A stretch of 64,000 nucleotides of DNA from Azolla caroliniana (Eukaryota > Plantae > Polypodiophyta): contig JBHGNT010000041.1 in assembly GCA_043228905.1 (NCBI GenBank), forward strand, positions 62,001 through 126,000. Direction: 5' to 3'. Shown here in pieces: positions 4,806 through 49,425 of the stretch (position 1 is the stretch's first letter; each line of letters opens with the position of its first letter). A program made the position numbers and the translations under genes. The notes under the pieces are model-generated. The model was not told the origin of the DNA and made no database searches. It was given only the letters and a program-made list of their open reading frames with translations.

Positions 4806-5740
4806 TGGTGTACATTCCTTGCCAGTGCTCGTCCTTGGCTGTGTTGGTACACGTACCTTGGCTTTTCCTCGCCGGAAGGTAATTATATTTTTCCTCCAAT
4901 TCTATTTGATATGTGCTGTTTTCAACCACGGCCGCCCCAGCAATAGCGGGTACGTGCCTTGTGCCTGTAATTGTAGCACTACTGCCGAGATCTGGCATTC
5001 TTGCAACGCTTGCCATGTCTCGTTCTCGGAGTGACTACCGCCGGCAAGCCCTACGGTGTTCTCCTTTTGCCGCTCTAAGTCTATTAAGTTTTGCTCGTTT
5101 GCTTCCGGATGGTCTCCTGCGTCTCCCATTCCTTGGCCATGCCCTTCGACCTTGTGGTCACCTGCTGTAGATTTGCCACTTCAGGGACTACCATATTTAC
5201 TGCCAGCCGTTTGTCATAGCTCTTCGCCAGGCATTGATTACTATAATGGCCTTCCTGTTGGCAGTAGTAGCAATAGGCTTTCCGGGTATTGCTGGATTCG
5301 GCATTGTTTGTTGTACCCGGGACAGGTCCTGTGGTAAGCGCGGGGTTTTGGGCTGGTTGGCTACTTGAAGCTCCTTGTTCCGGATCCCGTGGGTGGCCGC
5401 CTTTTTTGAAATGCCGTTTTTTGTTATAATTCTTCTTATTCCGGTACTCTTGGCGAGGTTGGTCGTTATATCTGCCGTATTCCTCCTGTTGTTGACGATA
5501 CCCGGGGGAGTGCTCCCAGTCGTAATGTTCATATCGTCTATTGTAATCCTGGTACCGATCATATCTATCGTACCGATTGTAGTTATCCCGCTGATCACCA
5601 TACCGGACATCATTCTCCCGTCGATCGCCATACTGGTCATCCTGTGCCGGTCGGTATCAGTCCATTCGCCGCCAGCGTTGTCGTGAAGGATTTGCTTCAC
5701 GATATAAAAGTAAACTTGAATATTGTATTAAGTAACATTT

Positions 5741-5798
5741 GAGAGACTTGAACCCGTAACCTCACACACCAAGGACGAAGCATATACCATTAAGATAA
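5741..5798 (-). promoter_or_regulatory. tRNA-like Pol III A-box/B-box cassette in U3, antisense to element (second copy near 8680-8737)
   Basis: Minus strand reads tatcttaatggtatatgcttcgtccttggtgtgtgaggttacgggttcaagtctctc: A-box-like ...taatgg and B-box ggttcaagtc at tRNA spacing. Confidence 0.55.
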
Positions 5799-6084
5799 GT
5801 TATTTTCTATAATTATATTTTTATCACAATACTTATGACATGTGTATCTTCATACATTAGAGCTTAGATGAGCATGATGGCTATCATGCATCACATGTAA
5901 AGCATGTGCGCCAAATGGCAATCATGCATCACATGCATCACATGCATGCCATGCACCCCCATATCATCATATGCATGAGAGAACCTATAAAGAGAGGCAA
6001 GGAATTAAGGGATGGATCAAAGGAAAATAGGGTAATGAATGAATCAAGAGAAAGTGAGAAAATAATACAATCAAGTAAAGAAGA

Positions 6085-6140
6085 CTAGCTCATTGGGTGG
6101 AGAACCTCTCGTTTCGAAGTTGAGGTCGTGGGTTCAAATC
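6085..6140 (+). promoter_or_regulatory. Second tRNA-like A/B-box cassette in the LTR, sense (second copy near 9024-9079)
   Basis: ctagctcattgg...aggtcgtgggttcaaatc: A-box tagctcattgg, B-box ggttcaaatc. Confidence 0.55.
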
Positions 6141-6530
6141 AAGGGTCGGTAGAGAATGTGTTCAGTTTGTGATCAAGGATTGTAAAGTTGGTAAAATATT
6201 GTCTTTTTAATATACATCATGTTTATATCAAATACTCTTGCTTCTTGATTCATACTTTGTCTCAATCTTAAATCATATTTTGTCTATATCTTGCTTCTTG
6301 AATCATATATTGTCTCTATCTTCTATCTATTCTCATCTCTCTCTCACACACACATTACTCATAACTCTTCTTCTTGCTACTCTTAACCTTTCTAACATCA
6401 CCATACAAGCCTTATTAAAATTTAAGTTCCTTCAACTCCCCTTAACCTTCGTCCCTGCGACTTCGCCGCACGAACCACAACTACCCCGACACATTTGGTG
6501 AACCCGACGTGAAGGCGGCGACGAGGAGAA

Positions 6531-8579
6531 ATGGAGCAGCAAATGAGGCTTATGTGTACGATGATGGAACGAGTGATGCGGGAACAAGGGATGATGGCAA
6601 GCATCGACAAAGCCGTCGACAATATTCTCGCACGAGTAGGAATCTTTGAAGGTATAAATTTAACAAGATTTCTGAAGATTTATAATGAAGAAATGCTTAA
6701 ACGTGGTGTCGACAAAGCTGCAAAAATTAATAGCTTTAGTCGAGTTGCTGCGATTGGGCTACAAGAAAGGATCCAGGAGCTACAAAGGGAACATCAGACA
6801 TGGGTGACTTTCGAAAGAGCATTGCTAAATGAATACAACCTCAACGATATGTCAAGGATGACAAGGCGAGCTTTCATGGATTGGGTAGAGTCTAATAAAC
6901 ATTTAAGTGTTTTGGAAGTATTAAAAGAGTTTTCTGAAATATTTGAGCAACTAAATGTTAGAGATAGAAATATAATAGTGCCAGATAAAGTAATATTGTT
7001 TCTATAAGCTACTAATATTAAAGACAGGAGGGACTTGGGAATGCTTTTAGAAGATCAGAATAGTCCAAGTGGACTTACCGAAGATTGGGAGGAGGTGAAA
7101 AGGGCGTGCGCCCATTTCTGCAAAAGAAAGTTATGGTTTATGGAGTTGCCCGATAGAAATGATGAAGAAACGGGGAACGAGTGGGGAGAAAAGAAAGTAG
7201 AAGAATCACTCTTACACGAATTGGTGAAAGGCATGAAAGACTTGTCGATCAAAGTGACGAAGCTAGAATCGGGACAAAGCTTGACTTCATCAAGGCAGGG
7301 AGGTGGAATGGTCCGAAGGTGTATGTGGTGTGATAGTATCGACCACCAGAAGAAAGATTGTCAAGAACATAGGGATGCTCTTAATCATGATAAAATCTAT
7401 TATCAAGATGGTAAGATTCACTTGACAGAGACTCGACAACCACTTCAACTCAACTTTGGGCAAGGTGGAATGAAAAAGCTAATGGAAGATGCCGAGAGAG
7501 AAACGACTCAAGCAATACAATCTATGGCAACCTTAGGGTTGCGTGTAGAAGACTCGTATGGTGGATCTGACTTTTGGCAAGGTGTGATGGAGTATGCAAG
7601 AAAAGGGAAGGTTCAAATGAATGAATTAAAAAGCGCGGGTGATGAAATACGGAACTTCACTGGATGGAATGATCCAGTAGACACACTATCAGCATTTGCC
7701 CAAGTGAATGTACAAGATGCACTAGTGGAAGAGAAGCGAAAGAGAGCTGAAGAGGTTGATTTGGCAAAGAAACATGAGACACAAGAAAAACTTCAGAGAA
7801 GAGAGATGGAAAAGGATGCTCCTGATGCAGAAGAAGCTAATAAAGTCAAAGGGAAGATAGACCCAACTTTTAAGCTTGCTTCAGACACAGAAGCCACGAC
7901 GGATATAAAAAATGTCATGGAAGAAGTTAGGAGAGAGTGTACAGCAACAAGTCTCCAAGATTTGGATCATGAATCCATCAATGTTGCAAGTGTAAAAAAC
8001 AGAAATGATGTTGGGTTTCATGAAGAGGATAGGAGTCACTATACAAGGGACCATTGGGCACGAGCAACAACAGAGGCACCTGCAAAAATTGGGGAGCAAA
8101 ATATTCCATGTATTGCTTTGATCGATCATGGATCTGAGATTAACATGATGTCATCGGAATTTTACGCTCAAGGACGGTGGCCAATCGATAAGAATCATGG
8201 TTCGAAGAAAAGAGTTGCAACAGAGATGATGGAGGATCTATTCGGAGCATGTCCTAATGTGAAAGCAACAATGGGAGATATGTTGGTGGATCAAAATTAC
8301 TATGTGCAAGATGGATCAACCTACCCTGTCATCCTTGGTCAACCATACATCAGCGTAGTGAGTATGGAAACAATGGATGGTGAACTGTACATCAACGTAG
8401 TAAGGATGGAAACAACTGTGATTAATGATGATTCGACTTTCGTGAGGATCAAGAGTCAAGATGGAAGGAAGAGGGGCCATATCTTAACCATGATGCCTAA
8501 CAATGAAAGAAACGAAGAATTCTTGAGGGGACATCCAGTTCAGGAACAAAATGAAGAGTTTTTCCAAGACTTTGGATGA
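6531..8579 (+). CDS. gag: Gag + retroviral-type aspartic protease, one in-frame premature stop at 7005-7007
   Basis: ORFs 6531-7007 and 7035-8579 are in the same frame. CCHC knuckle CMWCDSIDHQKKDC; protease ALIDHGSEINMM and VILGQP. Confidence 0.8.
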
Positions 8580-8617
8580 ACTTTGCACAACTAGTGTGCA
8601 AGTTCAGAGGGGGTGGG

Positions 8618-9437
8618 TGTCGTGAAGGATTTGCTTCACGATATAAAAGTAAACTTGAATATTGTCTCAAGTAACATTTGAGAGACTTGAACCCGTAACC
8701 TCACACACCAAGGACGAAGCATATACCATTAGGATAAGTTATTTTCTATAGTTATATTTTTATCACAATACTTATGACATGTGTATCTTCATACAATAGA
8801 GCTTAGATGAGCATGATGGCTATCATGCATCACATGCAAAGCATGTGCGCCAAATGGCAATCATGCATCACATGCATCACATGCATGCCATGCACCCCCA
8901 TATCATCATATGCATGAGAGAACCTATAAAGAGAGGCAAGGAATTAAGGGATGGATCAAAGGAAAACAGGGTAATGAATGAATCAAGAGAAAGTGAGAAA
9001 ATAATACAATCAAGTAAAGAAGACTAGCTCATTGGGTGGAGAACCTCTCGTTTCGAAGTTGAGGTCGTGGGTTCAAATCAAGGGTCGGTAGAGAATGTGT
9101 TCAGTTTGCGATCAAGGATTATAAAGTTGGTAAAATATTGTCTTTTTAATATACATCATGTTTATATCAAATACTCTTGCTTCTTGATTCATACTTTGTC
9201 TCAATCTTCCTTATTAAATCATATTTTGTCTCTATCTTGCTTCTTGAATCATATATTGTCTCTATCTTCTATCTATTCTCATCTCTCTCACACACACACA
9301 TTACTCGTAACTCTTCTTCTTGCTACTCTTAACCTTTCTAACATCACCATACAAGCCTTATTAAAATTTAAGTTCCTTCAACTCCCCTTAACCTTCGTCC
9401 CTGCGACTTCGCCGCACAAACCACAACTACCCCGACA
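8618..9437 (+). repeat. 3' LTR of Trp-primed element
   Basis: Direct repeat of 5679-6491, preceded by PPT. Confidence 0.93.
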
Positions 9438-14200: not shown

Positions 14201-14945
14201 AACCGACCGACCTAGACCGACCATCTATTGTGACTCACAGAGCACAATACACCTCATCAACAATCCCTTCTATCACACAAAAACGAAGCATATTGAGGTG
14301 TGGTATCATCGCATCCGGGAGCTCATAACCGAGAAGAAGCTCGATGTCCGGAAAATCGACACCGAGGTGAACATCGCCGATTGTCGGGCGAAGCCACTCC
14401 CAGATCTACGCTTCGGAGCACTAAGGACGAAGATGGGACTATGACAAGCGACCGAGCAAAAGAAAGCCAAACGAGGGACAGTAGGTAAGACCTAATCGGA
14501 ACAACTATATCTATGCTTACTATACCTCTGTTGACTCGGCCGCATGCCAACTGACTTGGAATGTAAATTTAGGATAATCTTGTAATCTAGATTTACGGGG
14601 GAGATAACCCCAAACATTTGTATACGCAAGAAAGAGTAGTCCTTTTACGGGGGAGTTTGTTGGCATAAAAGCCCGACTCCTTCCAATTTGTATTCGGCCT
14701 AGCGTGAACTCGTCCACATAGTTAGGGCTTAGTATATAAGCAATAACCTGATGTTGTAGAGAAGAGATAGATATATACACATTGTATCAAGACTCTGAGA
14801 GAGAGAGAGAACGTAATAAAGCTTTCCATTAAAGCTCATTTCTGTGTAAGTCTCCGCCTTCCTCCCCTTCTGTGTTGTTTTCTGACATATGCAAACAAGT
14901 TCTCATATGCTTCCGCATACGCACACACCTACCAAACTTTCTACA
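11274..14945 (+). mobile_element. pol: Ty1/copia family B, 3' portion (integrase-RT-RNase H-3' LTR), degenerate
   Basis: VRHVPDLKRSLVS, LVHIDICGP, RVFGCEAY, QMDVKTTFLHG, LYVDDML, TKHIEV. PPT ttacgggggag, then LTR 14658-14945 (tgttgg...ctaca). Confidence 0.9.
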
Positions 14946-15183
14946 AGATGTTCACAGAACAGTAGATCCATGAAAGTACTTAACAACCACATTGTCAAGT
15001 CGACACAAGCTCAATCCCATAGATTGAAAGACATTTCTTGCCACAACATAATGTATATGGAATTGTACATATTGAATGGGCTTTGTTGGCCACATAAAAT
15101 ATTTTTGGAATTGTACATGGTTGATGTGCACTACTTGCCATGTAAAAGGTACTATTGGTAGATGAAAGAATTCATGTTATCTA

Positions 15184-15256
15184 GTCGGCCTAGCTTAGAT
15201 GGTAGAGGGCAAGGCTCTTCACCTTGTGGTCGTGGGTTTGAGCCCTATGGCCTACG
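15184..15256 (+). pseudogene. tRNA-Lys(CUU) degenerate copy
   Basis: Homologous to 17935-18007 with substitutions in the anticodon loop and T-loop. Confidence 0.8.
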
Positions 15257-15588
15257 TCATACCATGTAAAATGTTTATTGAATTGTAGATTAATGAAAGT
15301 ATTTAACAAACATGTCAGGCTACCTTAAATGCTAGAACCACATGATTGGCGTTATTTGCCATGTAAAATGTTCATGGAACTCAAAAAAACTTAAGAAACA
15401 TGTCAACATAGACTCAATACCCACCCATGTCTGACGAGTGTTTCTTGCCACATAAAATGTATATGACATTGTACATGTTGGACAGGCTTTGTTGGCCACA
15501 TAAAATGTTTTTGGAACTCTACATGCTTGATGGCACTGCTTGCCACATAAAAGGTACTCTTGGTAGATGAAAGACTTCATGTTAGCTA

Positions 15589-15661
15589 GCCACCCTAGCT
15601 TAGATGGTAGAGCACAAGGTTCTTAACCCTTTGGTCATGGGTTCGAGCCCCATGGCCGACA
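15589..15661 (+). pseudogene. tRNA-Lys(CUU) degenerate copy
   Basis: Homologous; acceptor and anticodon stem mismatches. Confidence 0.8.
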
Positions 15662-16006
15662 TTTCATACCACGTAAAATGTTCATTGAATTGTAGATCAA
15701 TGAGAGTATTTGACAAACATGTTAGGCTAGCTTAAATGGTAGAACCTCATGGTTGGCGTTATTTGCCATGTAAAATGTTCATGGAACTCTAGACCCATTA
15801 AAGAACTTAAGAAACATGTCAGCATAGGCTCCATACCCACCCATCTTTGATGTGCGTTTCTTCCCACATAAAATGTATATGGAATTGTACATGTTGGACG
15901 GGCTTTGTTGGCCACATAAAATGTTTTTTGGAACTCTACATGCTTGATGTGCATTGCTTGTCACGTAAACGATACTCTTGGTAGATGAAACACTTCATGG
16001 TATCTA

Positions 16007-16080
16007 GCCGGCCTAGCTTAGATGGTAGCGGCCCAAGGCTCTTAACCTTGTGGTCATGGGTTTGAGCCCCATTGCCGATG
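16007..16080 (+). pseudogene. tRNA-Lys(CUU) degenerate copy
   Basis: Homologous; D-arm and B-box mutated. Confidence 0.8.
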
Positions 16081-16469
16081 TTTCACGTTACCACGTAAAA
16101 TGTTCATTGAATTGTAGATGAATGAAATTATTTAACAAACATGTCAGGCTAAGCTTAAATGGTGGAAACTTATGGTTGGCGTTATTTGCCATGTAAAATG
16201 TACATGGAACTCTAGATCCATAAAAGAACTTAAGAAACATGTCAACATAGGCTCAATACCCAACCAAACATAGTAGCATAGGCTCAATACCCGCCAAACA
16301 TATTAGCATAATCTAAATACCCACCCATGTTTAACGAGCGTTTCTTGCAACATAAAATGTATATGGAATTGTACATGTTGGATGGGCTTTATTGGCAACA
16401 TAAAATGTTTTTGCAAGTCTACATGCTTGATGGGCACTGCTTGGTAGATGAAAGAATTCATATCATCTC

Positions 16470-16540
16470 GCTAGCCAGCTCAAATGGTAGAGCGCAAAGG
16501 CTCTTAACCTTGTGATCATGGGTGAGTCCCATGGTTGGTG
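16470..16540 (+). pseudogene. tRNA-Lys(CUU) degenerate copy
   Basis: Homologous; small indels, T-loop deleted. Confidence 0.75.
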
Positions 16541-16887
16541 ATGTTCATGAAACCCTAGATACATGAAAATACATAATAACCGCATCATCACGCCCACATG
16601 GCCAACCTAGTTTAAATGGTAGAGGGTGGTTGGTGTTGCTTGCCATGTAAGATGTTCACAGAACTCTAGATCCGTGAAAGTACTTAACAACCACATTGTC
16701 AAGTCGACACAGGCCTGATCCCCTAGATTTAAGAGCATTTCTTGCCACATAATAATGTCTATGGAACTGTACATCTTGAACGGGCTCTGTTGGCCACATA
16801 AAATGTTTTTGGAACTCTACATGCTTGATGTGCAGAGCTTCCCATGTAAAAGGTACTCATGGTAGATGAAACGTTTCATGTTATCTA

Positions 16888-16960
16888 GCTGGCCTAGCTC
16901 AGATGGTAGAGCGCAAGGCTCTTAACCTTGTGGTCATGGGTTCAAGCCCCATGGCCGGCG
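16888..16960 (+). tRNA. tRNA-Lys(CUU), near-intact (T-loop TTCAA)
   Basis: 73 nt, paired acceptor stem GCTGGCC/GGCCGGC, anticodon loop CTCTTAA. Confidence 0.75.
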
Positions 16961-17404
16961 TTTCATATCACGTAAAACATTCATTGAATTGTAAACCCAT
17001 GAAAGCATTTAACAAACATGTTAGGCTAGCTTAAATGGTAAAACCTCATGGTTGGCGTTATTTTCCATGTAAAATGTTCATGGAACTATAGATCCATAAA
17101 GTAACATAACAAACATGTCAGGCTCAATATTTTCCATGTAAAATGTTCATGGAACTAGAGATTCATAAAGGAACATAACAAACATGTCACATGTCAGGCT
17201 CAATACCCATGTTTGAAGAGCGTTTCTTGCCACATATAATGTTCTATCGAACTCTACATGTGGGAAGGGCATTTTTAGCCACATAAAATGATTTTGGAAC
17301 TCTACATGCTTGATGTGCATTGTTGGCCCTGGTTGAAGGGAGAATATGAACAAACGAAGGAAAAAGAAAGATATATTGGTACATGAAACCTTTCTTGTTA
17401 TCTA

Positions 17405-17477
17405 GCTGGCCTAGCTCAGATGGTAGAATGCAAGGCTCTTAACCTTGTGGTCATGGGTTTGAGCCCCATGGCTGGTG
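17405..17477 (+). pseudogene. tRNA-Lys(CUU) degenerate copy
   Basis: Homologous; D-stem and T-loop transitions. Confidence 0.8.
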
Positions 17478-17934
17478 TTTCATACCACGAAAAATGCTCA
17501 TTGAATTGTAGATCAATGAAACTATTTAACAAACATGTCAGGCTAGCTTAAATGGTAGAACCTCATGGTTGGCGTTATTTTCCATGTAAACTGTTCATGG
17601 AACTCTAGATCCATAAAGGAACATAACATAAAAGAAAAATATATTGAAATGGTGGAGTTTTATCCAATAATTCGACTCGACTTGACAAGTATTAGGAGGA
17701 GATAGAAATACACATGTATTACTAGGAACGTGGAAGTTTATTTCTTATTGATGAAGATGGGTTTGTCTTTAAATATACCACGGATTTTAATCCAGATAGA
17801 CCTTTCTCTGACTATTCGTTGCAGAATTATCTGCGTCGACCAACCTTGTTAATTAAGCTTCAATTATTGTTCGGTGAAAACAACATTTACGGGACTCTAG
17901 GTAGATGAAATACACAAATAAACCATGTTGTCAA

Positions 17935-18007
17935 GCCGGCCTAGCTCAGATGGTAGAGCGCAAGGCTCTTAACCTTGTGGTCATGGGTTCGAGCCCCATG
18001 GTTGGCG
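17935..18007 (+). tRNA. tRNA-Lys(CUU), intact cloverleaf
   Basis: GCCGGCCTAGCTCAGATGGTAGAGCGCAAGGCTCTTAACCTTGTGGTCATGGGTTCGAGCCCCATGGTTGGCG matches the plant cytosolic tRNA-Lys(CUU) layout. CAA at -3 to -1. No immediate T-run terminator. Confidence 0.82.
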
Positions 18008-18321
18008 ATGTTCGTGAAACCCTAGATACATGAAAATACATAATAACCACGTCAATAACTTCACATGGCCATTTACCTAAATTAAATTGTAGAGGGTGGT
18101 TGGTGTTGCTCTCCATGTAAGATGTTCATAGAACACTGGATCCATGAAAGTACTTTACAACCACATTGTCAAGTCGACACAGTTCTTGCCACATAAAAAT
18201 GTATATGGAATTGTACATGTTGGATGGGCACATAAAATGGTTTTGGAACTCTACATGCTTGATGTGCACTTCTTGCCACATAAAAGGTACTCTTGGTAGA
18301 TGAAACGTTTCATGTTATCTA

Positions 18322-18394
18322 GCTGGCCTAGCTCAGATGGTAGAGCGCAAGGCTCTTAACCTTGTGGTCATGGGTTCGAGCCCCATGGCCGGCC
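18322..18394 (+). tRNA. tRNA-Lys(CUU), intact cloverleaf (C discriminator)
   Basis: All four stems pair; A- and B-boxes intact. Confidence 0.78.
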
Positions 18395-18933
18395 TTTCAT
18401 ACCATGTAAAACGTTCATTGAATTCTAGACCAATGAAAGTAATTAACAAACATGTCAGGGTAGCTTAAATGGTAAAACCTCATGGTTGGTGTTATTTTCC
18501 ATGTAAAATGTTCATGTAACTATAGACACATAAAGTAACATAACAAACATGTCAGGCTCAATATTTTCAATGTAAAATGTTCATGAAGGAACATAACAGA
18601 TATGTCAGGCTCAATACCCATGTCTGAATAGCGTTTCTTGCTACATATAATGTTCTATCGAACTCTACATGTGGGAAGTGCATTTTTTGCTACATAAAAT
18701 GATTTTGGAACTCTACATGCTTGATGCGCATTGTTGGCCCTGGTTGAAGGGAGAATATGAACAATCGAAAGAACACCACGGATTTTTAATCCAGATAGAC
18801 CTTTCTCTGACTATTCATTGTAGAATTACCCCCGTCGACCAACCTTGTTAATTACGCTTGGATTATTGTTCGGTGAAAACAATGTTTACGGGACTCTAGG
18901 TAGATGAAATACACAAATAAAGCATGTTGTTAA

Positions 18934-19006
18934 GCCGGCCTAGTTCAAATGGTAGAGCACAAGGCTCTTAACCTTGTGGTCATGGGTTTGAGCCCCACGG
19001 TTGGCG
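18934..19006 (+). pseudogene. tRNA-Lys(CUU) degenerate copy
   Basis: Homologous; D-arm and T-loop transitions. Confidence 0.8.
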
Positions 19007-19237
19007 ATGTTTGTGAAACCCTAGATACATGAAAATACATAATAACCACGTCAATAACTTGACATGGCCATTTACCTAGTTTAAATTATAGAGGGTGGTT
19101 GGTGTTGCTCTCCATGTAAGATGTTCATAGAACACTGGAGCCATGAAAGTACTTAACAACCACATTGTGAAGTCGACATAGGCTTGATCCCCCAGATTTA
19201 AAAGCATTTATTGACACATAAAAATGTATATGGAACT

Positions 19238-19753
19238 TGTTGAGAATGGCGCGGAATATTGCTCGGCCACAATCGAGTCTTGAACACTTCTATGAGAATG
19301 AAACACAGAAATGGGAAGTGGAGGGTACACAAAAGGTAATACACAGGATGTTTACGTGGAAAACCCTGAATGGGAAAAACCACGGGAGCTCACAGACTCC
19401 AACTATCACTATGAAGAAAAAGAGGGTACAAGCAGAGACTCGGAGGCAACGACCTCGAGCTCTGTATCTTTGCCAACCGGCGGTTACAACAGGGTATTTC
19501 TTTGTATCTCACACTCTCTCTTTGTCGCTCTCTCTCTCTCTCTGTACAACAATATGACAATAACAACAACAACCACTACATAGAGTGATTGCCCTAAGTC
19601 ATATTTATACTTATTTGAACTTAGGGCTATTTACAAATATAGCCTCAATAGGCTTACTCAAAACATATTTACAGATATGTCTTCTCTTCTGGTTCTCACA
19701 GAGTCCTCTTTATTCATCACCGAATCCCATCCGGAGAGACCGATTTCCCAACA
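19238..19753 (-). repeat. Copia family A LTR (probably a 3' LTR), reverse orientation
   Basis: Reverse complement of LTR 39351-39927; TG...CA ends; no matching TSD on its own flanks. Confidence 0.85.
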
Positions 19754-20329
19754 ATCTCGCAACTTGGATACCGCCAATCTGACTCTGACCCATGCATTTA
19801 TATTAGGCAACTGGTCGACGAGTCTAGGATTTATCTGATCCTATATGTCGATGGCTAGAGATCGGAAAGCTGAAGTGGTGCCTTCACGACAAGTTTGCGA
19901 TGAAGGAACTCGGACAAGCCCATTGCATACTGGGCATGAGGATCGAGCGAAATCAGATGACCAAGACTCTCCAACTCTCCCAGTCCAACTATATCCGGAA
20001 GGTCCTGAAACGCTTCAACATGCACAATGCGTAGCCAACACCAACACCGCTTCCGACGTTGATCCGACTATTGGACAGAGACTCTCCTTCAATGGACAAG
20101 GAGAGAGAGCTTAATGGAAAGATGGCCTACGCATCAGTTGTACGCAATGGTGGTGACCCGACCCGACCTAGCCTATGCCGTAGGAGTGGTCAGCCGGTAC
20201 ATGTCAAATCCAGGACGGAAGCATTGGGAGGCCGTCAAGCACATCTTCAAGTACCTGAGAGGGACCAAAGATACACAACTGACTTTCGGTTTGACAACCT
20301 CAACCGAAGTCAAAAGCTACATGTCATGA

Positions 20330-20397
20330 TATGGCAAGACTCGAACCCATGACCTTATACTACATGGGTCGAGCTCTTGACCATTAGACTATACATT
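20330..20397 (-). promoter_or_regulatory. tRNA-like Pol III A/B-box cassette at the U3 end of family E LTR, antisense (also near 25553-25620)
   Basis: Minus strand reads gtatagtctaatggtcaagagctcgacccatgtagtataaggtcatgggttcgagtcttgcc: A-box tagtctaatgg, B-box ggttcgagtc. Confidence 0.65.
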
Positions 20398-20739
20398 GTA
20401 ATATGTAGAATAATATTTTCATTTATGTTTTATTATAGAAAATTGATGTATATTCTAGATTTCTCTGGAACATTCTAGAAACTTCAGGAGTATTCCTTAG
20501 AACACTATAAAAGGAGGCACAAGGCATTATTTTGAGCCAAATCGGTTCAACGCCAGTCTTAAGCCTCCTAGCTACTGTACATTTTCTTCACATAATATAT
20601 ATCTTTTCTTATCATCACTCACTCTCTCCCTCCCTCCCTCTCACTCACTCTTTCCTTCTCTCGAGAGTTCTTCACCTCTCTTAGTACTAATACTTCTTTT
20701 AGTACTAATTCCTTCTCTGTCTTAGTACTGTTCCTGACA

Positions 20740-20754
20740 GTTTGAACCGATTTT
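20740..20754 (+). promoter_or_regulatory. Self-priming PBS (Tf1-type)
   Basis: ttgaaccgattt (20742-20753) is the exact reverse complement of aaatcggttcaa (20539-20550), about 33 nt after TATAAAA at 20506. Confidence 0.8.
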
Positions 20755-20813
20755 CCCTACCTTTTGTCTCTCTCATTTCCTACTAATCTCTTATTCCTCT
20801 TTTCTTTCATCCC

Positions 20814-21965
20814 ATGGCCACTGTTAGCGCTGAAGAATATCAATCTGTTTTCTCGGAATTTCAATGCTTGAAAGAGAAGTTCCATGCTTTGGAACAAGAA
20901 AACCATCGGTTGCTGGGGGATCTTCAGCAAATCTCCTTAGAAAAGCAGCAAACGCAACAACAACATGGGGAACTTGCGTTACGCGTGCAACAACTCGAAG
21001 CAACCATCATAGCGATGCAACAACAAGGGCCCGGAACACAAGGGATTCATAAAGAACCCAAGATTGGCCTTCCCACGAAGTTCGATGGAACGCGATCGCA
21101 GTTTAGAGGGTTTCTTAACCAGGTACAATTAGTTTTTCAAATGCATCCTTCCCAGTATCCCACCGATGCATCACGAGTGGGTTTAGTAGGCACTTTGTTA
21201 AGTGGCTCAGCATTGGCATGGTTCGCTGCACTATTAGAAAAGGAATCTCCGTTACTCAACAATTTTGAAGAGTTTCTAGGTGAGTTTAAAGCATGTTTCG
21301 GAGATATTGACAGCATCAGGACCGCAATCAACAACATTCGGCGATTATGCCAAGGTGACCGTCTAGCCTCCACATACGCTGCAGATTTTCGCCTACTCGC
21401 CGCCGATATCCCTTGGGATGATCAAGCGTTGATGGAGCAATTCCGTTCTGGTTTATGCAACGACGTCAAGGATTTACTCTTGACCTTCCCCGAAGAGCCA
21501 AAGTCCTTAACAGAAGCAATAAGTCGCGCGGTGAGATGTGACAATCGCCTCTTTGAGCGACGTTCGGAACGACAGCTACAGATGTCGAGGGCAAGATCAG
21601 AGCCCATCTACGCCTCAGTGGTAGCAAGACCTTTTCCGAGGGAGTCATATAATGCGCCTCCAGCGAATACTCCGACTCCGATGGAGATTGACACTACACG
21701 TCATCGAGGGCCATTATCCGAAGAAGAAAAGCAGCGACGCCGTACAAATCGACTATGTCTTTACTGCGGTGGACTAGGACATATTGCAATAAATTTCCCC
21801 CGTAGGCCAAGAAGACAGGTAAACCAAATAGTCGCTAGTTCTAATTGTACTAAACCCGAGCCTATTTCAGTAGGGATATCTAATAGTCCTAATAGTACTA
21901 ATAGCCCAGATCTAGCGAACAGATTTGATGTCCTTAGTCAGTTAGAAGAAGAGTTAAACGACTAA
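20814..21965 (+). CDS. gag: Chromovirus Gag (Tcn1/Ty3-like capsid, degenerate CCHC knuckle)
   Basis: 383-aa ORF: PTKFDGTRSQFRGFL, AWFAALLE, PTPMEID, LCLYCGGLGHIAIN. Confidence 0.9.
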   Translation: MATVSAEEYQSVFSEFQCLKEKFHALEQENHRLLGDLQQISLEKQQTQQQHGELALRVQQLEATIIAMQQQGPGTQGIHKEPKIGLPTKFDGTRSQFRGFLNQVQLVFQMHPSQYPTDASRVGLVGTLLSGSALAWFAALLEKESPLLNNFEEFLGEFKACFGDIDSIRTAINNIRRLCQGDRLASTYAADFRLLAADIPWDDQALMEQFRSGLCNDVKDLLLTFPEEPKSLTEAISRAVRCDNRLFERRSERQLQMSRARSEPIYASVVARPFPRESYNAPPANTPTPMEIDTTRHRGPLSEEEKQRRRTNRLCLYCGGLGHIAINFPRRPRRQVNQIVASSNCTKPEPISVGISNSPNSTNSPDLANRFDVLSQLEEELND

Positions 21966-21991
21966 GTCCAACCAAAATAGGAGCCGTTTGG

Positions 21992-24900
21992 TTGGACAGC
22001 CCTAGATCTGTGCAGCCCATTAGTGGTTCCATTCCCTCTAAGCAAGTTAGTGATGTGTTCGTAGCCCAAGTAATAGTTAGTACTAAAAGTACCCCTCCAG
22101 TACATGTCCTAGCACTCCTAGATTCCGGAGCTAACTCTTGCTTTATGGATAAGAAATTTGCTCAAGCTCATAAGATATCCCTAAGAAAACTCCAGTGTCC
22201 AGCCTCTGTAGTAGTCATTGATGGACGTCCCATTGCTTCCGGAAATATCATAGAAGAGTCAGAGCCCATTAATATTGTCCTAGATAACTTAGCATGTGTA
22301 GTATCATTTAGTATTATTAGTATCCCAGAACATCCCATAGTTTTAGGATTACCGTGGTTCGAGTTACATAACCCAGACATAGATTGGAGAACAAGAGAAA
22401 TCCGGTGTCAACAAACCCAAGGGTCAACTTAGAAGATGGAAACCATTTCGCTACGTTAGTTGCGTAAAGAAGGGCACAAGGAGGAAATGTTCCTCTTTGC
22501 AATATCAGTAAACCCCTCCAGCACCACTAAAGAAGAATCCACCGTTCAACATCCCGAGAAGTATCGTCATTACGCCGATGTGTTCGATAAAGTACAAGCC
22601 AACACACTTCCTCATCATCGACCGTACAATTGCCCCATCGATTTACAACCGGGAAAAGAGCCGCCATGGGGACCGATCTACAATTTGTCACCAACCGAGC
22701 TGGAAGTCCTTCGGGCCTATATAAAGGAGAATTTGGAAAATGGTTTCATCCGGCATTCGAAATCTCCAGCCGGCATGCCCATTTTCTTCGTCAAGAAAAA
22801 GGATGGATCGCTTCGTCTCGTTGTAGATTACCGTGGCCTGAATAAGGTTACAATCAGGAATAGGTATGCTCTTCCCCTTATCTCAAGTCTTTTAGAATGG
22901 GTCAATGGTGCCAGGTTCTTCACGAAGATCGACTTACGGGGAGCATATAACCTCGTACGGATCCGACCAGGAGACGAATGGAAGACTGCGTTTCGCACCA
23001 GATATGGGCACTTCGAGTATACGGTCATGCCGTTCGGCCGCACTAATGCACCGGCAGTCTTCCAGCACATGACTAATGATATATTCCAAGATCTATTGGA
23101 TGATTGTTTGATCATCTATTTGGATGATCTACTGGTTTATTCAAAGACCCAAGAAGAACATGATTCTCATGTACTATTAGTACTAAAACGACTTCAAGAA
23201 CATGGTCTGTATGCAAAGTTGGAAAAATCTAGTTTCGGGTGCAACCAAGTGGAATTTCTCGGCTACATCATTTCGTCAGAAGGCATCTCCATGGACCCAA
23301 CTAAGGTCAAAACGGTGGTAGAATGGCAGACTCCGCGTTCGTTGCGGGATGTGCAATGCTTCCTAGGCTTTGCCAATTTTTACCGGAAGTTCATACAAGA
23401 TTACTCAAAGATCGTTCTACCTGTCACACAACTTACTAGGAAGGGACAACTGTTCATCTGGTCTAAAGAAACGGACGTGGCTTTCGAGAGACTTAAAAAG
23501 GCATTTACATCGGCTCCAATTCTAGCTCATGTCAATCTGGAAAAACCATTCATTATCGAAGCTGACGCATCGGATTTTGCATTGGGGAGCATTCTGTCAC
23601 AACAAGGGAATGATGAGAAGCTACATCCTGTGGCTTTTCACTCACGCAAGTTTGACGCCGCCGAAATCAACTACGAAATTCATGATAAGGAGCTATTGGC
23701 AATAGTGGATTCTTTTATGCAATGGAGGCATTTTCTGGAGGGATCCTCTCATCCGGTCACCGTATTTAGTGATCACAAGAACCTTGCCTACTTTCAGGAT
23801 GCTCGTGTGTTGAATCGACGTCAAGCTCGGTGGGCCCACTTCCTCACGCGTTTCGACTTGAAAATTACATATCGTCCGAGGAAGCACCAAGGGAAGGCAG
23901 ATGCATTATCATGACGTTCGTATCTAGCACCCCGTCCTGGCGAGCCAACTTTCGATAACCAAAAACAAGTCATCTTGGGACCGACACGACTACAAGCAAC
24001 ACAGATCTTTGACATGCCCATGGATTCCCGTGTTATCGATACCATACGCGAAGACAGAAAGACAGATGCTTTCGCCCAAGCTATACTAGCACAAATTGAT
24101 CCCTCTCGAGCGACGTGTTCACAGTCGCAACCACCAGGTACGGACTATCGGCAATTCAAATACCATGATGGATTACTCTTCTTTAAAGAACTTTTGTATG
24201 TTCCTAATGGTTCTTGCCACCTTCAAGTAGTACAAAACTGTCATGACACATATACAACTGGGCATTTTGGTAGTACTAAAACACTACGTTTAGTACAACG
24301 ATCATTTTGGTGGCCCTGTATGCGACAATTTGTCGAGGATTTTGTTCGGACTTGTGATACATGCTGCAGAGCGAAAATGCCAAGGCATCATCCATATGGT
24401 TTATTAGAACCATTACCAATTCCAAGCGAACCGTGGCAATCCATTGCTCTAGACTTCAGCACAGATCTTCCAGTCTCTAAGGGATTCAATGCGATTCTAA
24501 CGGTGGTCGATCGATATACGAAGATGGCTCATTTCTTGCCATGTACTAAGGAGATCTCCAGTGAAGACACTGCCGAAATTGTCATGCGTGAAGTATGTCG
24601 GCATCATGGACTTCCCGATAGTATCATCAGCGGCCGTGGACCCCAATTCGTGTCAAAATTCTGGAAGCACCTTTTTAACATGCTCAAGGTCACTTGTAAC
24701 CTCTCCTCCGGCTACCACCCACAAACCGACGGCCAAGCCGAACGAACCAATCAAACGCTGGAGCAGTATCTGCGGTGCTTTCTCAGCTATCATCAGGATG
24801 ACTGGGCAGATATCCTCTACTTCGCCGAATTTGCCTATAACAACTCTATCCATGCATCCACGAAAGTTACACCATTTTATGCTTATACGGGATGTCACCC

Positions 24901-25552
24901 CCGGTGGTGTGTACTTGAAACCCCAGAGGTGTCCACAAATCCTTGCGGAGGATCGTCTAGAGAGGTTACGCAAGATACAAGCGGATTTATCTACTCATCT
25001 CCAACAAGCTCAACAAACACACAAGGTTTATGCGGATCGTCATCGACTCCCATCTAGTTTTAACATTGGAGATCGGGTATGGCTACTCCGACGACACATC
25101 AAGACTACTCTACTCGCCCATGCGAGAAGTTGGATTATCGGCGATTAGGTCCTTTTCGTATTATCAGAAAGATTAATGATGTCACTTTTCGTCTTGATCT
25201 ACCTCCACAACTTCGGATACATCCGGTGTTTCATAGTTCTCTCCCCGAACCCTATCAAGAGAGCACCATCCCAGGACGTATTACACAGCCTCCACCCCCG
25301 ATCGAGCTTGAAGATGGACCTGAGTACGAGGTTGCCGCCATCCTTGATTCCAAGCTTGTTCGCAACAAGCTCTACTATCTAGTCGATTGGCTAGGATATA
25401 GTCCCATCGAGCGTACTTGGGAACCGATAGAGAATGTCACCAATGCTCGTGCTCTTCTTGAAGACTTCCATCGTCAATATCCAGACAAACCGGGTCCTCA
25501 ATCTAAAACGACTCGTTACACTAGTTGTTTTAAAGGGAGGATAGTGTCATGA
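21992..25552 (+). pseudogene. pol: Chromovirus Pol (PR-RT-RNase H-INT-chromodomain) with a few stops and frameshifts
   Basis: LLDSGANSCF, IYLDDLL, DASDFALG, GYHPQTDGQAER, GPF, chromodomain YEVAAILDSK...YLVDWLGY...TWEP. Confidence 0.92.
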
Positions 25553-26693
25553 TATGGCAAGACTCGAACCCATGACCTTATGCTACATGGGTCGAGCTCT
25601 TGACCATTAGACTATACATTGTAATATATAGAATATTATTTTCATTTATGTTTTATTATAGAAAATTGATGTATATTCCAGATTTCTCTGGAACATTCTA
25701 GAAACTTCAGGTGTATTCCTTAGAACACTATAAAAGGAGGCAAAGGCATTATTTCGAACCAAATTGGTTCAACACCAGTCTTAAGCCTCCTAGCTACTGT
25801 ACATTTTCTTCACATAATATATATCTTTTCTTATCATCACTCTCTCTCTCTCGATCTCTCTCTTAGTACTAATACTTCTTTTAGTACTAATTCCTTCTCT
25901 GTCTTAGTACTGTTCCTGACACTACACTGACTCCGACTTTGCCAGAAATACGGACAATCGGATGTAAACATCAGGCTATATTTTCACCTATGGTGGTGGT
26001 GTGATATCATGGATGTCCAAGCTTCAAGAGTGCACAACCCTGTCGACAATAGAGGCCGAGTACATAGCAACATCAGACGCAATGAAGGAAGTGATCTAGC
26101 TGCATCTACTGTCTCCCAACTTCTTATCTACAAGCTGAATCGACTGACCAATGCAGACCATCTATTGCGATTCACAGAGCGCAATTCACCTCATTAACAA
26201 TCCCTTCTATCACGCAAAGATGAAGCACATTCAGGTACGGTATCATCACATCCGGGAGCTCATAACTAAGAAGAAGCTTGAAGTCCGGAAGATTGACACC
26301 AAGGTGAACATCGCCTATTGCCTGACAAAGTCACTCCGAGATCAACGCCTCAGAGCACTAAGGACAAAGATGGGACTACGACAAGTGACCGAGCAGAAGA
26401 AAGCTGAACGAGGAGTAGAAGGTAAGAGTCGACCAAATCAATCATGATAATGAGGCATGGTAGGCTCGACACGAACCTCACCTATGCCGACTCGACTATA
26501 TGCCGACCGACTTGTAACATAAATTTAGATTAGTGTTGTAATCAAGGTTTACGGGGGAGACAACCCCAAACACATGTACATGTAGGAAAGAGTAGTCCTA
26601 TTACGGGGGAGTTTGTTGGCATAAAAGGCCGACTCCTTCCACTGTGTATCCTAGTGTGAACTCATCCATATAGTTAGGGCATACATCGAGTCT

Positions 26694-26877: not shown

Positions 26878-27058
26878 CTTCAACGGCACGAGGGCACATT
26901 TTCACGGTTTCATCAAACAAATTCGGCTAATCATCCGATAACAACCCCAACAGTATGCTAATGACTTTTCTCAAATTGGCCTCATCGGCACCCTTCTCTT
27001 TGGGCCAACGCAAGCATGGTTTGCACCCTTGGTCGAGACCTCATCCCCTCTCTTACAA
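26878..27058 (+). pseudogene. Short Tcn1-like gag fragment from a different subfamily
   Basis: Translates FNGTRAHFHGFIKQIRLII...IGLIGTLLFGPTQAWFAPLVETSSPLL, homologous to Gag 20814-21965. Confidence 0.7.
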
Positions 27059-27967
27059 CTTCCACGTTCCTAGTAATACATGTGTATTTCTATCTCCTCC
27101 TAATACTTGTCGAGTCGAGTCGAATTATTAGATAAAACTCCACCATTTCAATATATTTTTCTTTTATGTTATGTTCCTTTATGGATCTAGAGTTCCATGA
27201 ACATTTGACATGGAAAATAACGCCAACCATGAGGTTCTACCTTTTAAGCTAGCCTAATATGTTTGTTAAATACTTTCATTGATCTATAATTCACTGAACA
27301 TTTTATGTGGTATGAAACGCTAGCCATGGGGCTCGAACCCATGACCACAAGGTTAAGAGCCTTGCGCTCTACCATCTGAGCTAGGCCAGCTAGATAACAA
27401 GAAATGTTTCATCTACAAATATTTCTTTCTTTTTCTTTCGTTTGTTCATATTCTCCCTTCAACCAGGGCCAACAATGCACATCAAGCATGTAGAGTTCCA
27501 AAATCATTTTATGTGGCCAAAAATGTCCTTCCCACATGTAAAGTTCGATAGAACATTATATGTGGCAAGAAATGCTCTTCCGACATGGGTATTCAACCTA
27601 ACATGTTTGTTATGTTCCTTTATGGATCTCTAGTTCCATGAACATTTTACACAGAAAATATTGAGCCTTACATGTTTGTTATGTTACTTTATGGATCTAT
27701 AGTTCCATTAACATTTTACATGGAAAACATGTTTGTTATGTTGCTTTATGGATCTCTAGTTCCATGAACATTTTACATGGAAAATATTGAGCCTTACATG
27801 TTTGTTATGTTACTTTATGGATCTATAGTTCCATTAACATTTTACATGGAAAATAACGCCAACCATGAGGTTTTACCATTTAAGCTAGACTGACATGTTT
27901 GTTAAATACTTTCATTGTTCTACAATTCAATGAACGTTTTACGTGGTATGAAACCCCGGCCATGGGG
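27059..27967 (-). repeat. tRNA-Lys satellite block 2, inverted relative to block 1
   Basis: Reverse complement of about 16950-17740. Confidence 0.9.
27318..27390 (-). tRNA. tRNA-Lys(CUU), intact cloverleaf
   Basis: 73 nt; acceptor GCTGGCC/GGCTAGC pairs; CTT anticodon; GGTTCGAG B-box. Confidence 0.8.
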
Positions 27968-38554: not shown

Positions 38555-38627
38555 CGCCAACCATGGGGCTCGAACCCATGACCACAAGGTTAAGAGCCTT
38601 GCGCTCTACCATCTGAGCTAGGCTGGC
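38555..38627 (-). tRNA. tRNA-Lys(CUU), intact cloverleaf
   Basis: GCCAGCC/GGTTGGC acceptor stem; otherwise identical to 17935-18007. Confidence 0.8.
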
Positions 38628-39150
38628 TTGACAACATGCTTTATTTGTGTATTTCATCTACCTAGAGTCCCGTAAACATTGTTTTCACTGAACAATAATC
38701 CAAGCGTAATTAACAAGGTTGGTCGACGCAGGTAATTCCGTAATGAATAGTAAGAGAAAGGTCTATCTGGATTAAAATGACCAATAGGTTGAGCGCCTTG
38801 CGCTCTACAATCTAAGCTAGGCCAGCTAGATAACAAGAAATGTTTGATCTACCAATATATCTTTCTTTTTCTTTTGTTTGTTCATATTCTCCCTTCAACT
38901 AGGGCCAAAAATGCCCTTCCCACATGTAGAGTTCGATAGAACATTATATGTGGCAAGAAATGCTCTTCCGACATGGGTATTTAGCCTGACATGTTTGTTA
39001 TGTTCCTTAATGGATCTCTAGTTCCATGAACATTTTACATGGAAAATAACGCCAACCATGAGGATTTACTATTTAAGCTAGCCTAGCATGTTTGTTAAAT
39101 ACTTTCATTAAGTGGTCTACAATTCAATGAACGTTTTACGTGGTATGAAA

Positions 39151-39226
39151 CGCAGGCCATGGGGCTCGAACCCATGACCACAAGGTTAAGAGCAAGGTTG
39201 CGCTCTTCCATCTGAGCAAGGTCAGC
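39151..39226 (-). pseudogene. tRNA-Lys(CUU) degenerate copy
   Basis: Homologous; anticodon stem disrupted by a small insertion. Confidence 0.75.
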
Positions 39227-44308: not shown

Positions 44309-45478
44309 TGTCGTGAAGATCCGTCACTACGCGCGGATCGTGAGGCAGAACCGTCGGGGTTCTGGACTGGAAGGATTCAAAGTCGGTACAAGCTTTCGCG
44401 CAAGCTTTAGCGAGAAAGTACTTAAGATAGATTGGGAAAGAGAGAAGTTGAGATTAAACGATTGAGAGAGATTGATTGAACTTTTATCTTTGGATTTAAG
44501 AAACAAGTTACACGATCAATTTGATAACGAATTTCTTCTTCTTAATTTCATAACCCAAAAAAAAAACATTTTTTCTCCTCCCCCTTCCTTCTTTTATAGA
44601 TGCTCTCATGCATATGCATGTGAGGGTACAAGACATGCATAAAATGCATGTTTGCCATTTGGCGCTCATGTATTACATGTGGTGCATGATAACCATGTCA
44701 CTCATTTTAGCTCTCATGTATGAGAATTTACATGTAAAAAGTACAATGATAGAAATATAAATCCAACTAAATGGCATGGTTTAATGGTAAGCCAATTGAC
44801 TCCTAACTTGGAGGTGCAAGGTTCGAATCCTTACTTGCCTTCCTTGTATATATATATATGTATATATATTTATATATTTATTTATCTAGTCACCGGACGC
44901 CGGTTCGTCGTCGCCTTACCGGTGTCGGATGCCGTCGGTTACCGGTGCCTCGCCGGATGCCGTCGTCACCGGTTGCCGCCGGATGTCGTCGATTACCGAT
45001 GCCTCACCGGATGTCGCCGCCTCGCCGTCGCCGGATTGCCATCGGATGTCGGTGTCTCACTACCGTCGGATCACCGGCTCCATCGCCGGTCCGATTTTAG
45101 TTGGCCAAAACCCTTTATGAGTAGCTAGCCCACCTCCACTCTTAGTTCAAGTTACCTTGAACTCTCTATGCTCCACACATAGACACAAAGATAATATATT
45201 TTTCTCTCCCTTATATATGATAAGAGTCGTATTTGTCGTGCCTATGTGGGATATCTCACAATTTTCTCTTTTCCTTTCACAAACTTTATACCCTCATATC
45301 TTGACATTTAGTTGTCCGTTTCTCGTGTAATAAAGTGCATTCGAAACCTCCATCATTTTGTACTTAGATATTAAATTTATTTAAAATGTTATCTTCACAA
45401 TTATTGTATTATGTGATTCATAATCGATTTTGTACGTTTTATGGGATTTTCACACTACTGCCGAAAATCTTCACGACA
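44309..45478 (-). repeat. Solo LTR of the Trp-primed gypsy lineage
   Basis: Termini tgtcgtgaag...cttcacgaca; 4-bp TSD ccgc/ccgc; 44590-44740 is a reverse-complement homologue of 5840-5995. Confidence 0.88.
44773..44839 (+). promoter_or_regulatory. tRNA-like Pol III cassette in solo LTR, antisense to element
   Basis: A-box tggtttaatgg (44777-44787), consensus B-box ggttcgaatcc (44820-44830), T-stem aagg/cctt, ggca...tgcc termini. Confidence 0.7.
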
Positions 45479-48779: not shown

Positions 48780-49425
48780 ATGATATGGATGGGAAGAGGA
48801 AGTGGTTGGGCTAGGTGCCGACGATGGTTGTGGCTCAACGGGTGGTGGGTTTCTTGTTGTGATGGATTGAAGCTCCCATAATGATTCCTGAAGGATTTCA
48901 TTTTCGAGTTGTAGTTGTTGCAAGGTTGCCACTACTTGGTTTAGGTTGTAGACGGATTCGGACATGGTAGCAATATGAGGGAATGTGAACAAACTGTCAC
49001 GGACAAGTATAATACAGTAGGAACAAGACGACACTAAGAACTAGGAGAGAGAAAAAGAACAAGAAATTGACTTATGATTTTGTAACTGGTGTTGTTCACC
49101 TTGATTAGAATGAAGGTGCACCTGAGTATTTATACAAGAAGGTAGAGGTATGTATGCTAGCTAGGAATAGAGAATGCATGTATGCAAGTTAGGAAAAGAG
49201 AATGCATGTCCGCAAGCTAGGAATAGAGGATGCATGAGGATGCATGAGGATGCATGCAAGCTAGGAACTTCCAATGTTCAATCTACCATACATGAAGTTT
49301 GGATTTTATACAAGGATGCATGGATGGATGTAACTTAGTTGGTCGGGTTGCCAAATGGAGACCAAGTGGTCTTGGTTAGGGTTCAATCCCTACCTTCCAC
49401 CGTGGTGTGGCATATGTCTATGACA
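48780..49425 (-). mobile_element. Second Tcn1-like family (G): 5' LTR 48995-49425 plus gag N-terminus
   Basis: tgtca...tgaca termini; non-tRNA PBS gtttgttcacatt; gag MSESVYNLNQVVATLQQLQLENE (coiled-coil-like). Confidence 0.7.
49326..49400 (+). promoter_or_regulatory. tRNA-like Pol III cassette near the U3 end of family G LTR, antisense to element
   Basis: A-box-like taacttagttgg (49331-49342), B-box ggttcaatccc (49380-49390), T-stem tagg/ccta. Confidence 0.55.

Follow-up and report, generated by a model that had tools for sequence, protein, structure and literature searches.

Antisense tRNA-type promoter boxes in the LTRs of plant gypsy retrotransposons are conserved in young lineages and may serve as TFIIIC sites

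Why would retrotransposons that have a Pol II promoter of their own carry a tRNA-type Pol III promoter in the U3 of their LTRs, pointing backwards? The question is raised by a stretch of 64,000 nucleotides from Azolla caroliniana (contig JBHGNT010000041.1, positions 62,001 to 126,000; called the window below), for which a preliminary description had reported pairs of A-boxes and B-boxes in several gypsy LTR families. These antisense tRNA boxes in plant gypsy LTRs are real, and they are conserved in young lineages. The window is made up of nested LTR retrotransposons, with gypsy and copia domains all along and many LTR pairs. The elements concerned are (positions in the window):

20322..25921, plus strand: E1 (family E element), a coding Ty3/gypsy chromovirus, Tcn1-like, 5.6 kb
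20322-20739 and 25545-25921, plus strand: LTRs of E1, identical at 367/377 positions, 5-bp TSD CTACA
20468..20485, plus strand: TTCnnGAA array of E1, between cassette and TATA box
20506..20512, plus strand: TATA box of the E1 LTR, 115 nt from T8 of the A-box
20539..20551, plus strand: self-primer at the R start of E1, complementary to the PBS at 20740-20753
50454-50893, minus strand: 3' LTR of E2, a second family E subfamily
60940-61384, minus strand: 5' LTR of E2 (TSD of the element GGTCG)
48995..49425, minus strand: LTR of G, with a PBS of the self-priming type (48982-48994) and no coding sequence left
49429-49797, minus strand: LTR H, related to E by R start and repeats
5679..9437, plus strand: Phy1, a Phygy-like element of 3.76 kb, 4-bp NCGN TSD (GCGT/ACGT)
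44309..45478, minus strand: Phy2, a Phygy-like solo LTR of the Trp-primed lineage, TSD CCGC

According to Pfam, E1 contains gag, RT, RNase H, integrase, SH3 and chromodomain, the last with Y, W and Y at what we take to be the aromatic-cage positions. Phy1 has gag-like and protease-like ORFs only, without RT, and a tRNA-type PBS (at 6496), whose primer is presumably tRNA-Trp. As far as PMC6317226 describes them, Tcn1 elements (known from mosses and club-mosses) have a chromodomain, a 5-bp TSD and a self-complementary PBS, and Phygy elements (known from a moss) prefer NCGN targets; these occurrences suggest a non-seed land plant as the probable host. Family E has the chromodomain (PF00385) and the self-priming PBS (20740-20753 against the R start at 20539-20551); Phy1 and Phy2 have the 4-bp NCGN target site, the tRNA PBS and no chromodomain. 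The hosts are accordingly placed by features, with no named reference in the RT tree, as a Tcn1-like chromovirus clade and Phygy-like elements (Phy1 and Phy2 each lack an RT).

Several further observations were made on these elements. A third Trp-primed element (63382-63521, minus strand) has a very short LTR, ~140 bp, without a cassette; its ORF is interrupted by E2, with remnants to 61390 and at 50452-50252. The Phy2 solo LTR splits an RT-like ORF (44100-45950) that we take, by eye and from its motifs, to be Penelope-like; the frame 45417-46118 has no Pfam match. In all E-clade LTRs the R start (20530-20554 in the window) is a small palindrome whose 3' arm is the self-primer, and this arm is also a 9/9 look-alike of a sense B-box, without an A-box; we ascribe this second B-box-like palindrome to self-priming. 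TTCnnGAA arrays, presumably heat-shock-element-like, are found in the U3 of clade E (20468-20485; L022-L024), in H (49560-49670) and in some fungal-type relatives (L001, L003, L004), and the elements that carry them may be heat-responsive.

Box pairs were scored against the consensus TRGYNNARN(N)GG plus GGTTCRANNCC (17 informative positions, taken in part from Kojima 2024), with P values per LTR from 1000 shuffles. As the preliminary description had claimed, a pair at tRNA spacing is present at all eight cited places, where it runs antisense to the element and precedes its TATA box, and Phy1 has a second one:

B 20337-20347 / A 20381-20391, minus strand: E1 5' LTR cassette, 16/17, P<0.001, 15 nt from the LTR edge
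B 25560-25570 / A 25604-25614, minus strand: E1 3' LTR cassette, 16/17, just downstream of the PPT
A 50824-50834 / B 50868-50878, plus strand (element minus): E2 3' LTR cassette, 14/17
A 61315-61325 / B 61359-61369, plus strand (element minus): E2 5' LTR cassette, 15/17, P=0.002
A-like 49331-49342 / B 49380-49390, plus strand (LTR minus): G cassette, P=0.004, B-box 35 nt from the edge
B 5744-5754 / A 5787-5797, minus strand: Phy1 5' LTR antisense cassette, 15/17, P=0.005
B 8683-8693 / A 8726-8736, minus strand: Phy1 3' LTR antisense cassette, a copy of the 5' one
A 44777-44787 / B 44820-44830, plus strand (LTR minus): Phy2 cassette, 17/17 (full consensus), P<0.001
6086-6141, with a copy at 9025-9080, plus strand: second Phy1 cassette, in sense and downstream of the TATA box, 15/17, P=0.005

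The two kinds of Phy1 cassette flank the TATA box, so that both point away from the core promoter. Pairs scoring at least 15/17 number 23 in the window (12 in a tRNA-Lys repeat, 10 in the cassette LTRs and 1 in coding sequence) against 0.8 (maximum 3) in 30 dinucleotide shuffles, and a chance origin of the box pairs is excluded. Seven other LTR copies, namely four copia copies of three families, chromovirus F, H and the short Trp-primed LTR, have no pair (best scores 10-12/17, P at least 0.59). The distance from T8 to G52 is 43-44 nt in E, Phy1 and Phy2, as in the tRNA-Lys copies of the window, and 49 nt in G. With 14-17 of the 17 positions matched at a spacing of 43-49 nt, the pairs have the make-up of type 2 Pol III promoters. 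The preliminary description had the boxes staying on consensus between subfamilies, but the B-box at 50868 is broken by C56>T (14/17), the E2 A-box tggtgtgatgg, given before as an example of the consensus, departs from it at A14 (A14>G), and the G A-box reaches only 6-7/8. Boxes, spacing and mostly an AGGT motif are what the LTR families that cannot be aligned with each other have in common.

A functional tRNA was considered and rejected, as the cloverleaf is paired in 57% of cells, no better than in shuffles (216/500) and with no covariation, and the best Rfam tRNA score in the four cassette stretches scanned is 13.7 bits (Phy2) against a gathering score of 29. The E and Phy1 stretches have no Rfam tRNA match, and none of the four stretches has a significant family. 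ARAGORN with lowered thresholds picks G at 90% and Phy1, Phy1-sense and Phy2 at 80%, among 66 calls that are mostly noise; even then the E cassette is absent from its picks, and we draw no support from them.

In the whole window, the only Rfam match is a tandem repeat of ~400-500 bp with a near-intact tRNA-Lys(CTT), at 14900-19240, 27057-27967 and 38069-39353. It gives 12 matches of up to 66 bits, beside partial copies that have degenerated, and no T4 follows the copies immediately. As a tRNA satellite or a SINE-like repeat it would raise counts of tRNA genes artificially. A link between the cassettes and this repeat was rejected (there is only a 15-nt match around the B-box, with 11/30 identity upstream).

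The A-box stands near the TATA box in all lineages measured (114-197 nt): at 114-115 and 171-172 nt in the two E subclades, and at 179 nt in Phy2, 189 in Phy1 and 197 in G. This constancy depends largely on one LTR, Phy2. From the B-box to the LTR edge there are 15-65 nt, and ~650 nt in Phy2; an integrase attachment site was rejected on this variation (15 to ~650 nt). A primer role was rejected too, because the PBSs are self-priming or match another tRNA. The first T4 run follows the B-box at 0 nt in six old copies, at 34 nt in Phy1 (antisense cassette, within the LTR), at 40 nt in L022-25 and at 47-51 nt in L011, L014 and the E1 3' LTR, and at 162-1416 nt or not at all in G, Phy2, E2, L012, L016 and L017; the Phy1 sense cassette has a T5 run 62 nt after its B-box, also within the LTR. 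A terminator is thus not common to the lineages, which argues against one defined RNA product. Plant tRNA genes are described (in PMC13578239, as far as it treats them) as having an AT-rich stretch for TFIIIB loading and CAA upstream of the start. At -35..-20 the AT content is 69-94% in all 14 LTR copies with a pair, in a U3 that is AT-rich anyway. CAA at -10..-3 is found in Phy2 only, which also has a TATA-like stretch upstream of the cassette; in clade E CAA falls at the notional +1, and in Phy1 and G it is absent.

Relatives of E were chosen by its SH3-chromodomain in metagenome contigs, blind to the cassette. This gave 45 loci, of which 23 extend as far as an E-type LTR start. Of the remainder, 8 stop short of it, 7 have an interruption or deletion there, 6 belong to sister elements that possess an extra ORF, and 1 is distant. 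At 17/23 LTR starts (after the PPT) the pair scores at least 15, with the same place and orientation as in E, and the other six hold a damaged homologue of the cassette. In the RT tree the cassette bearers form one clade (100/99). The sister elements (67-69% RT identity) have no cassette in the LTR stretches scanned; a single 15/17 match in one of them (L033) lies inside an ORF and is read as chance. Among nine fungal-type chromoviruses, none has a box pair in the LTR regions scanned. A viral collection yielded ten distant chromoviruses at 39-50% RT identity and, with the chromodomain as query, no match.

Other features were seen among these relatives. In the sister chromoviruses L028, L030-L033, L035 and L037 the chromodomain is followed by an extra ORF, and the LTR by a self-priming-like stretch with a Met-type PBS ~20 nt beyond it. 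The A-box of L022-L025, TATTACAATGG, resembles the motif just upstream of the other subclade's A-box joined to GG, as if it had been rebuilt at the right spacing by a short deletion or duplication.

Conservation was measured in nine high-coverage contigs (21-160x by their names), used as proxies for young multi-copy lineages and with ~68-95% chromodomain identity. Thirteen of 15 box sites are unchanged across them, including all seven of the B-box with its CpG, and the A-box changes only at G10 (twice) and within R9. The four-fold sites of the adjoining gene are saturated (2.25 changes on average; the two main subclades agree at 31% of them). In conservation the boxes exceed these sites (p=1.4e-6), the stretch that separates the boxes (p=0.0014) and the remainder of U3 (p=0.0015, with ~0.9 changes on average), in a contrast between two deep subclades only that treats sites as independent, and the LTR-versus-coding comparison would be flattered by possible LTR exchange between subfamilies. 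TATA box and self-primer are about as fixed as the boxes in these contigs. For all 24 U3 sequences, with changes counted on internal branches only, the raw difference between boxes and U3 has p=0.28, with just 4 consensus-breaking changes over 15 sites. An excess of conservation over the rest of U3 is seen in the nine high-coverage contigs but not in all 24 U3 sequences, decayed low-coverage copies included (p=0.5). These comparisons leave out L013 (same U3 as L012), L046 (unalignable after the cassette) and L020, a high-coverage copy with a decayed B-box whose LTR cannot be aligned after ~55 nt. The E LTR is also present in four DNA runs under four organism labels; among the best-supported 40 of 108 variants in those runs, none lies in the B-box, one is at A-box R9 (a change allowed by the consensus) and two are in or beside the hairpin loop described below. 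Among the runs listed for this LTR none is of RNA, which carries no message about expression.

The full set of 24 sequences speaks for an alternative, namely that a tRNA or SINE head in U3 is a mere passenger, carried along by young, homogenised and swapped LTRs, with its conservation reflecting general U3 constraint. Related LTRs do without the cassette (F, the short Trp-primed LTR and the sister clade), similar box pairs are found in other repeats of the same sources, so that tRNA-like heads are common here, and Kojima mentions 'not a few' Repbase LTRs with part of a tRNA (PMC10886601, in the portion available), which means that the bare occurrence is not new. A passenger, however, would lose its boxes and spacing as fast as its middle. 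Here the middle has diverged to 17/30 identity between E subclades and to 12/33 between Phy1 and Phy2, two LTRs that are ~75% identical just downstream of the cassette, yet the boxes with their CpG are retained and so is the spacing of 43-44 nt; moreover, all lone U3 cassettes have a single orientation. We consider the passenger explanation unlikely. The cloverleaf is lost and the boxes outlast inter-box and four-fold sites in young lineages, which bears out the earlier suggestion of selection on promoter boxes rather than on a tRNA; from the sequence comparisons, this looks to be what keeps them.

Clade E adds a structure of its own. The region of the former anticodon is the reverse complement of the B-box arm, which gives the following feature in E1:

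20331..20384, no strand assigned: inverted repeat spanning the cassette, an imperfect stem of ~20 bp with an 11-nt loop, folding on either strand

The anticodon region had been called unpaired or unalignable; this stands in so far as the cloverleaf is gone, but in clade E the region and the B-box arm form the two sides of a covarying hairpin. The hairpin is paired in 82% of cells (slid controls at most 44%), its covariation score and its two-sided changes exceed those of all 500 shuffles, and double changes affect several pairs that contain no CpG; relatedness is not taken into account by the shuffle control, and part of the double changes stem from CpG decay. Palindromes can also be perfected by template switching, with no selection involved. 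The fold has z-scores of -4.5 (antisense) and -5.7 (sense) in E1 and of -3.0 to -5.2 in E1- and E2-type copies, the decayed L027 apart; it is weak in L022-25 and was not found in G, Phy1 and Phy2 (z -0.7 to +1.1). A strand preference was rejected, as 30 G-U against 26 A-C cells show no G-U bias, and in young E copies both strands are about equally stable.

A hairpin of this kind suggests that the selected product might be a short antisense Pol III RNA, shRNA-like, that tunes the element RNA, sequesters silencing factors or gives rise to small RNAs. The miRNA cassettes in the U3 of foamy viruses are Pol III units with an A-box and a B-box (PMC3993851, in the part seen), and the clade E cassette folds as one long covarying hairpin. 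In an older E subfamily the TTTT that adjoins the B-box would end an RNA at ~70 nt, in L022-25 the T4 at 40 nt lies in the complement of the PPT, and the Phy1 T4 run is inside the LTR. Against this, several young high-copy E lineages have no near terminator, the hairpin is weak or absent outside the main E copies, neither strand is preferred, and the covariation is subject to the two reservations just given; hairpin and adjoining T4 occur together in the older E subfamily only. Such an RNA product seems to us rather unlikely.

In young E copies the hairpin is just as stable on the sense strand, at 10-65 nt from the PPT, and in H an inverted repeat persists at the cassette position although the boxes there have decayed. 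Both facts would fit a hairpin in the genomic RNA or cDNA of clade E with a role just after the PPT, be it in packaging, in strand transfer or in the priming of the plus strand; they would also fit a dyad bound by a Pol II factor. In either case the B-box would be no more than a stem arm. This would leave the A-box, the tRNA spacing and the families without a hairpin unexplained, it does not suit a Phy2 cassette ~650 nt from the LTR edge, and L022-25 have a 9/9 or 8/9 B-box though their hairpin is weak, so that we hold it to be quite improbable.

Regarding origin, the A-boxes of G and of the sense cassette of Phy1 are of a 12-nt TAGCT-type, those of clade E, L051 and the antisense cassettes of Phy1 and Phy2 of an 11-nt TAATGG-type; the two types suggest at least two sources. 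Over the A-box, an 18-nt stretch is identical between the E-clade copy L043 and Phy2, and E1 and Phy1 agree at 16/30 positions upstream of the B-box. Convergent capture by unrelated families, as proposed before, is unproven: G, self-priming like E and without coding sequence, cannot be called unrelated to it, and the sharing of sequence, together with box pairs in other repeats, makes one abundant tRNA or SINE source, or exchange of U3, as possible as separate captures. Inspection of the alignments by eye showed no SINE body, tail or TSD around a tRNA head, traces that would be gone from an old insertion. Regarding the other repeats, L021 contains three tRNA-like box pairs in a non-coding repeat (272-530), one resembling the G cassette and two with an A-box of the TATCCTAGTGG type, and L051 has an antisense pair (1011-1260) ~110 nt inside an LTR-like piece.

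What the lineages have in common is the boxes with their spacing and orientation, and a place near the Pol II promoter; hairpin and terminator are not shared. This points to a DNA site for TFIIIC. Our tentative preference, held with somewhat less than even confidence, is that the cassette is the remnant of a type 2 Pol III promoter in U3, selected as a predicted TFIIIC site that would serve the LTR promoter in cis. A tRNA or SINE would have inserted into U3 and left an antisense tRNA-type promoter, of which the remnant would have been kept in replicating lineages as a DNA site. TFIIIC might then occupy the boxes and bring TFIIIB to the AT-rich stretch between the cassette and the LTR TATA box, and the element's Pol II promoter could thereby stay open, shielded within silenced transposon nests. 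Any outward transcript would be a by-product, and the hairpin a clade-specific overlay. The available parts of the literature describe tRNA genes in nucleosome-poor regions (PMC11346459) and TFIIIC sites as barriers in yeasts (titles cited in PMC13578239); for plants, our literature search found no TFIIIC barrier activity. CpG methylation reportedly excludes TFIIIC (PMC11346459, in the part seen), and as the B-box holds a CpG, the barrier could fail where it is needed. The covarying hairpin of clade E is not explained by a TFIIIC site.

The same geometry could be read the other way, with an active Pol III unit damping the adjacent LTR promoter and keeping the element quiet until a heat-shock-like array is activated. 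Yeast tRNA genes dampen nearby Pol II promoters. The arrangement here is divergent, 114-197 nt from the TATA box, and in E the TTCnnGAA arrays lie between the cassette and TATA; an upstream nucleosome ~140 bp from tRNA start sites, as given in the accessible part of PMC11346459, would cover the core promoter. G, Phy1 and Phy2, however, have no such array upstream of TATA, and we regard this repression as highly improbable.

A bolder form of the TFIIIC reading is possible but doubtful: plant gypsy elements of at least two deep lineages may repeatedly have built a TFIIIC/Pol III module into their U3 as a portable anti-silencing barrier that each new copy takes along, and that in the chromovirus clade would have been remodelled into a hairpin gene. 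The module would face away from the element's own promoter, and in one Phygy-like LTR this promoter would be bracketed on both sides. If this were true, the elements themselves would bring a use of the Pol III machinery for chromatin defence, and tDNA-type insulators could for the first time be studied in plants in a natural setting. More generally, if TFIIIC binds, high-copy retrotransposons spread sites for Pol III factors through the genome, and plant tRNA-type barriers and retrotransposon activity in methylated nests become testable by one point mutation; if a hairpin RNA is the product, there is a plant retrotransposon parallel to the U3 cassettes of foamy viruses. Such cassettes escape both tRNA scanners and LTR annotation.

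Pol III cassettes in plant LTRs are known so far, from the sources as far as they were available, in tiny non-coding elements, where they make the element RNA. The cassettes here stand backwards in full-size coding elements with their own Pol II promoter, cannot make genomic RNA because they are antisense, and must be kept for another reason. A literature search, with subscription journals and Repbase largely outside it, found no conserved antisense tRNA boxes in the LTRs of coding plant gypsy elements. The chromodomain and self-priming of Tcn1 are like those of E, and the tRNA PBS and NCGN sites of Phygy like those of Phy1 and Phy2 (Neumann 2019, PMC6317226), in an account that, in the part seen, mentions no Pol III cassette.

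The tRNA analogue of Cassandra that the preliminary description saw in these LTRs has already been named, as Helenus (PMC10886601), and the present cassettes differ from it in orientation and host. According to the parts of PMC10886601 on which we draw, Cassandra TRIMs have a 5S-derived Pol III promoter in the LTR, in sense, and are non-autonomous and transcribed. Helenus/TRIMp3 (Kojima 2024) is a non-coding TRIM of 311-1263 bp, with one family from Selaginella, in which the tRNA boxes are conserved without a working tRNA and for which a SINE insertion into the LTR was proposed; only TRIMs were analysed there, and autonomous partners were held to use Pol II. The LTRs described here share with Cassandra a Pol III-type internal promoter in a plant LTR, here tRNA-type and antisense, and with Helenus the tRNA-derived A and B boxes. 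Unlike the non-coding Helenus (below ~1.3 kb), E1 measures 5.6 kb with gag-pol domains and Phy1 3.76 kb with gag-like ORFs, and whereas the Helenus cassette is in sense and thought to make the element RNA, the U3 cassettes of these coding, TATA-promoter hosts are antisense; the only sense one, the second of Phy1, is followed by T5 inside the LTR.

Outside plants, and within what the cited sources offered, the Pol III units of foamy viruses and BLV (PMC3993851, PMC4378190) are alike in having A and B boxes and a hairpin in the U3 of an autonomous retroelement, independently of its Pol II promoter, but these are animal retroviruses with defined terminators and proven miRNAs, whereas the terminator here is not conserved and any RNA product would be putative. 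The TFIIIC barriers of yeasts (PMC13578239, PMC11346459) likewise use A and B boxes as DNA elements that act on their neighbours, and so do the tRNA-like extragenic promoter elements of trypanosomatids (PMC4950102), where the neighbour is a Pol III gene; both are host loci, in contrast to boxes that are borne by a transposon.
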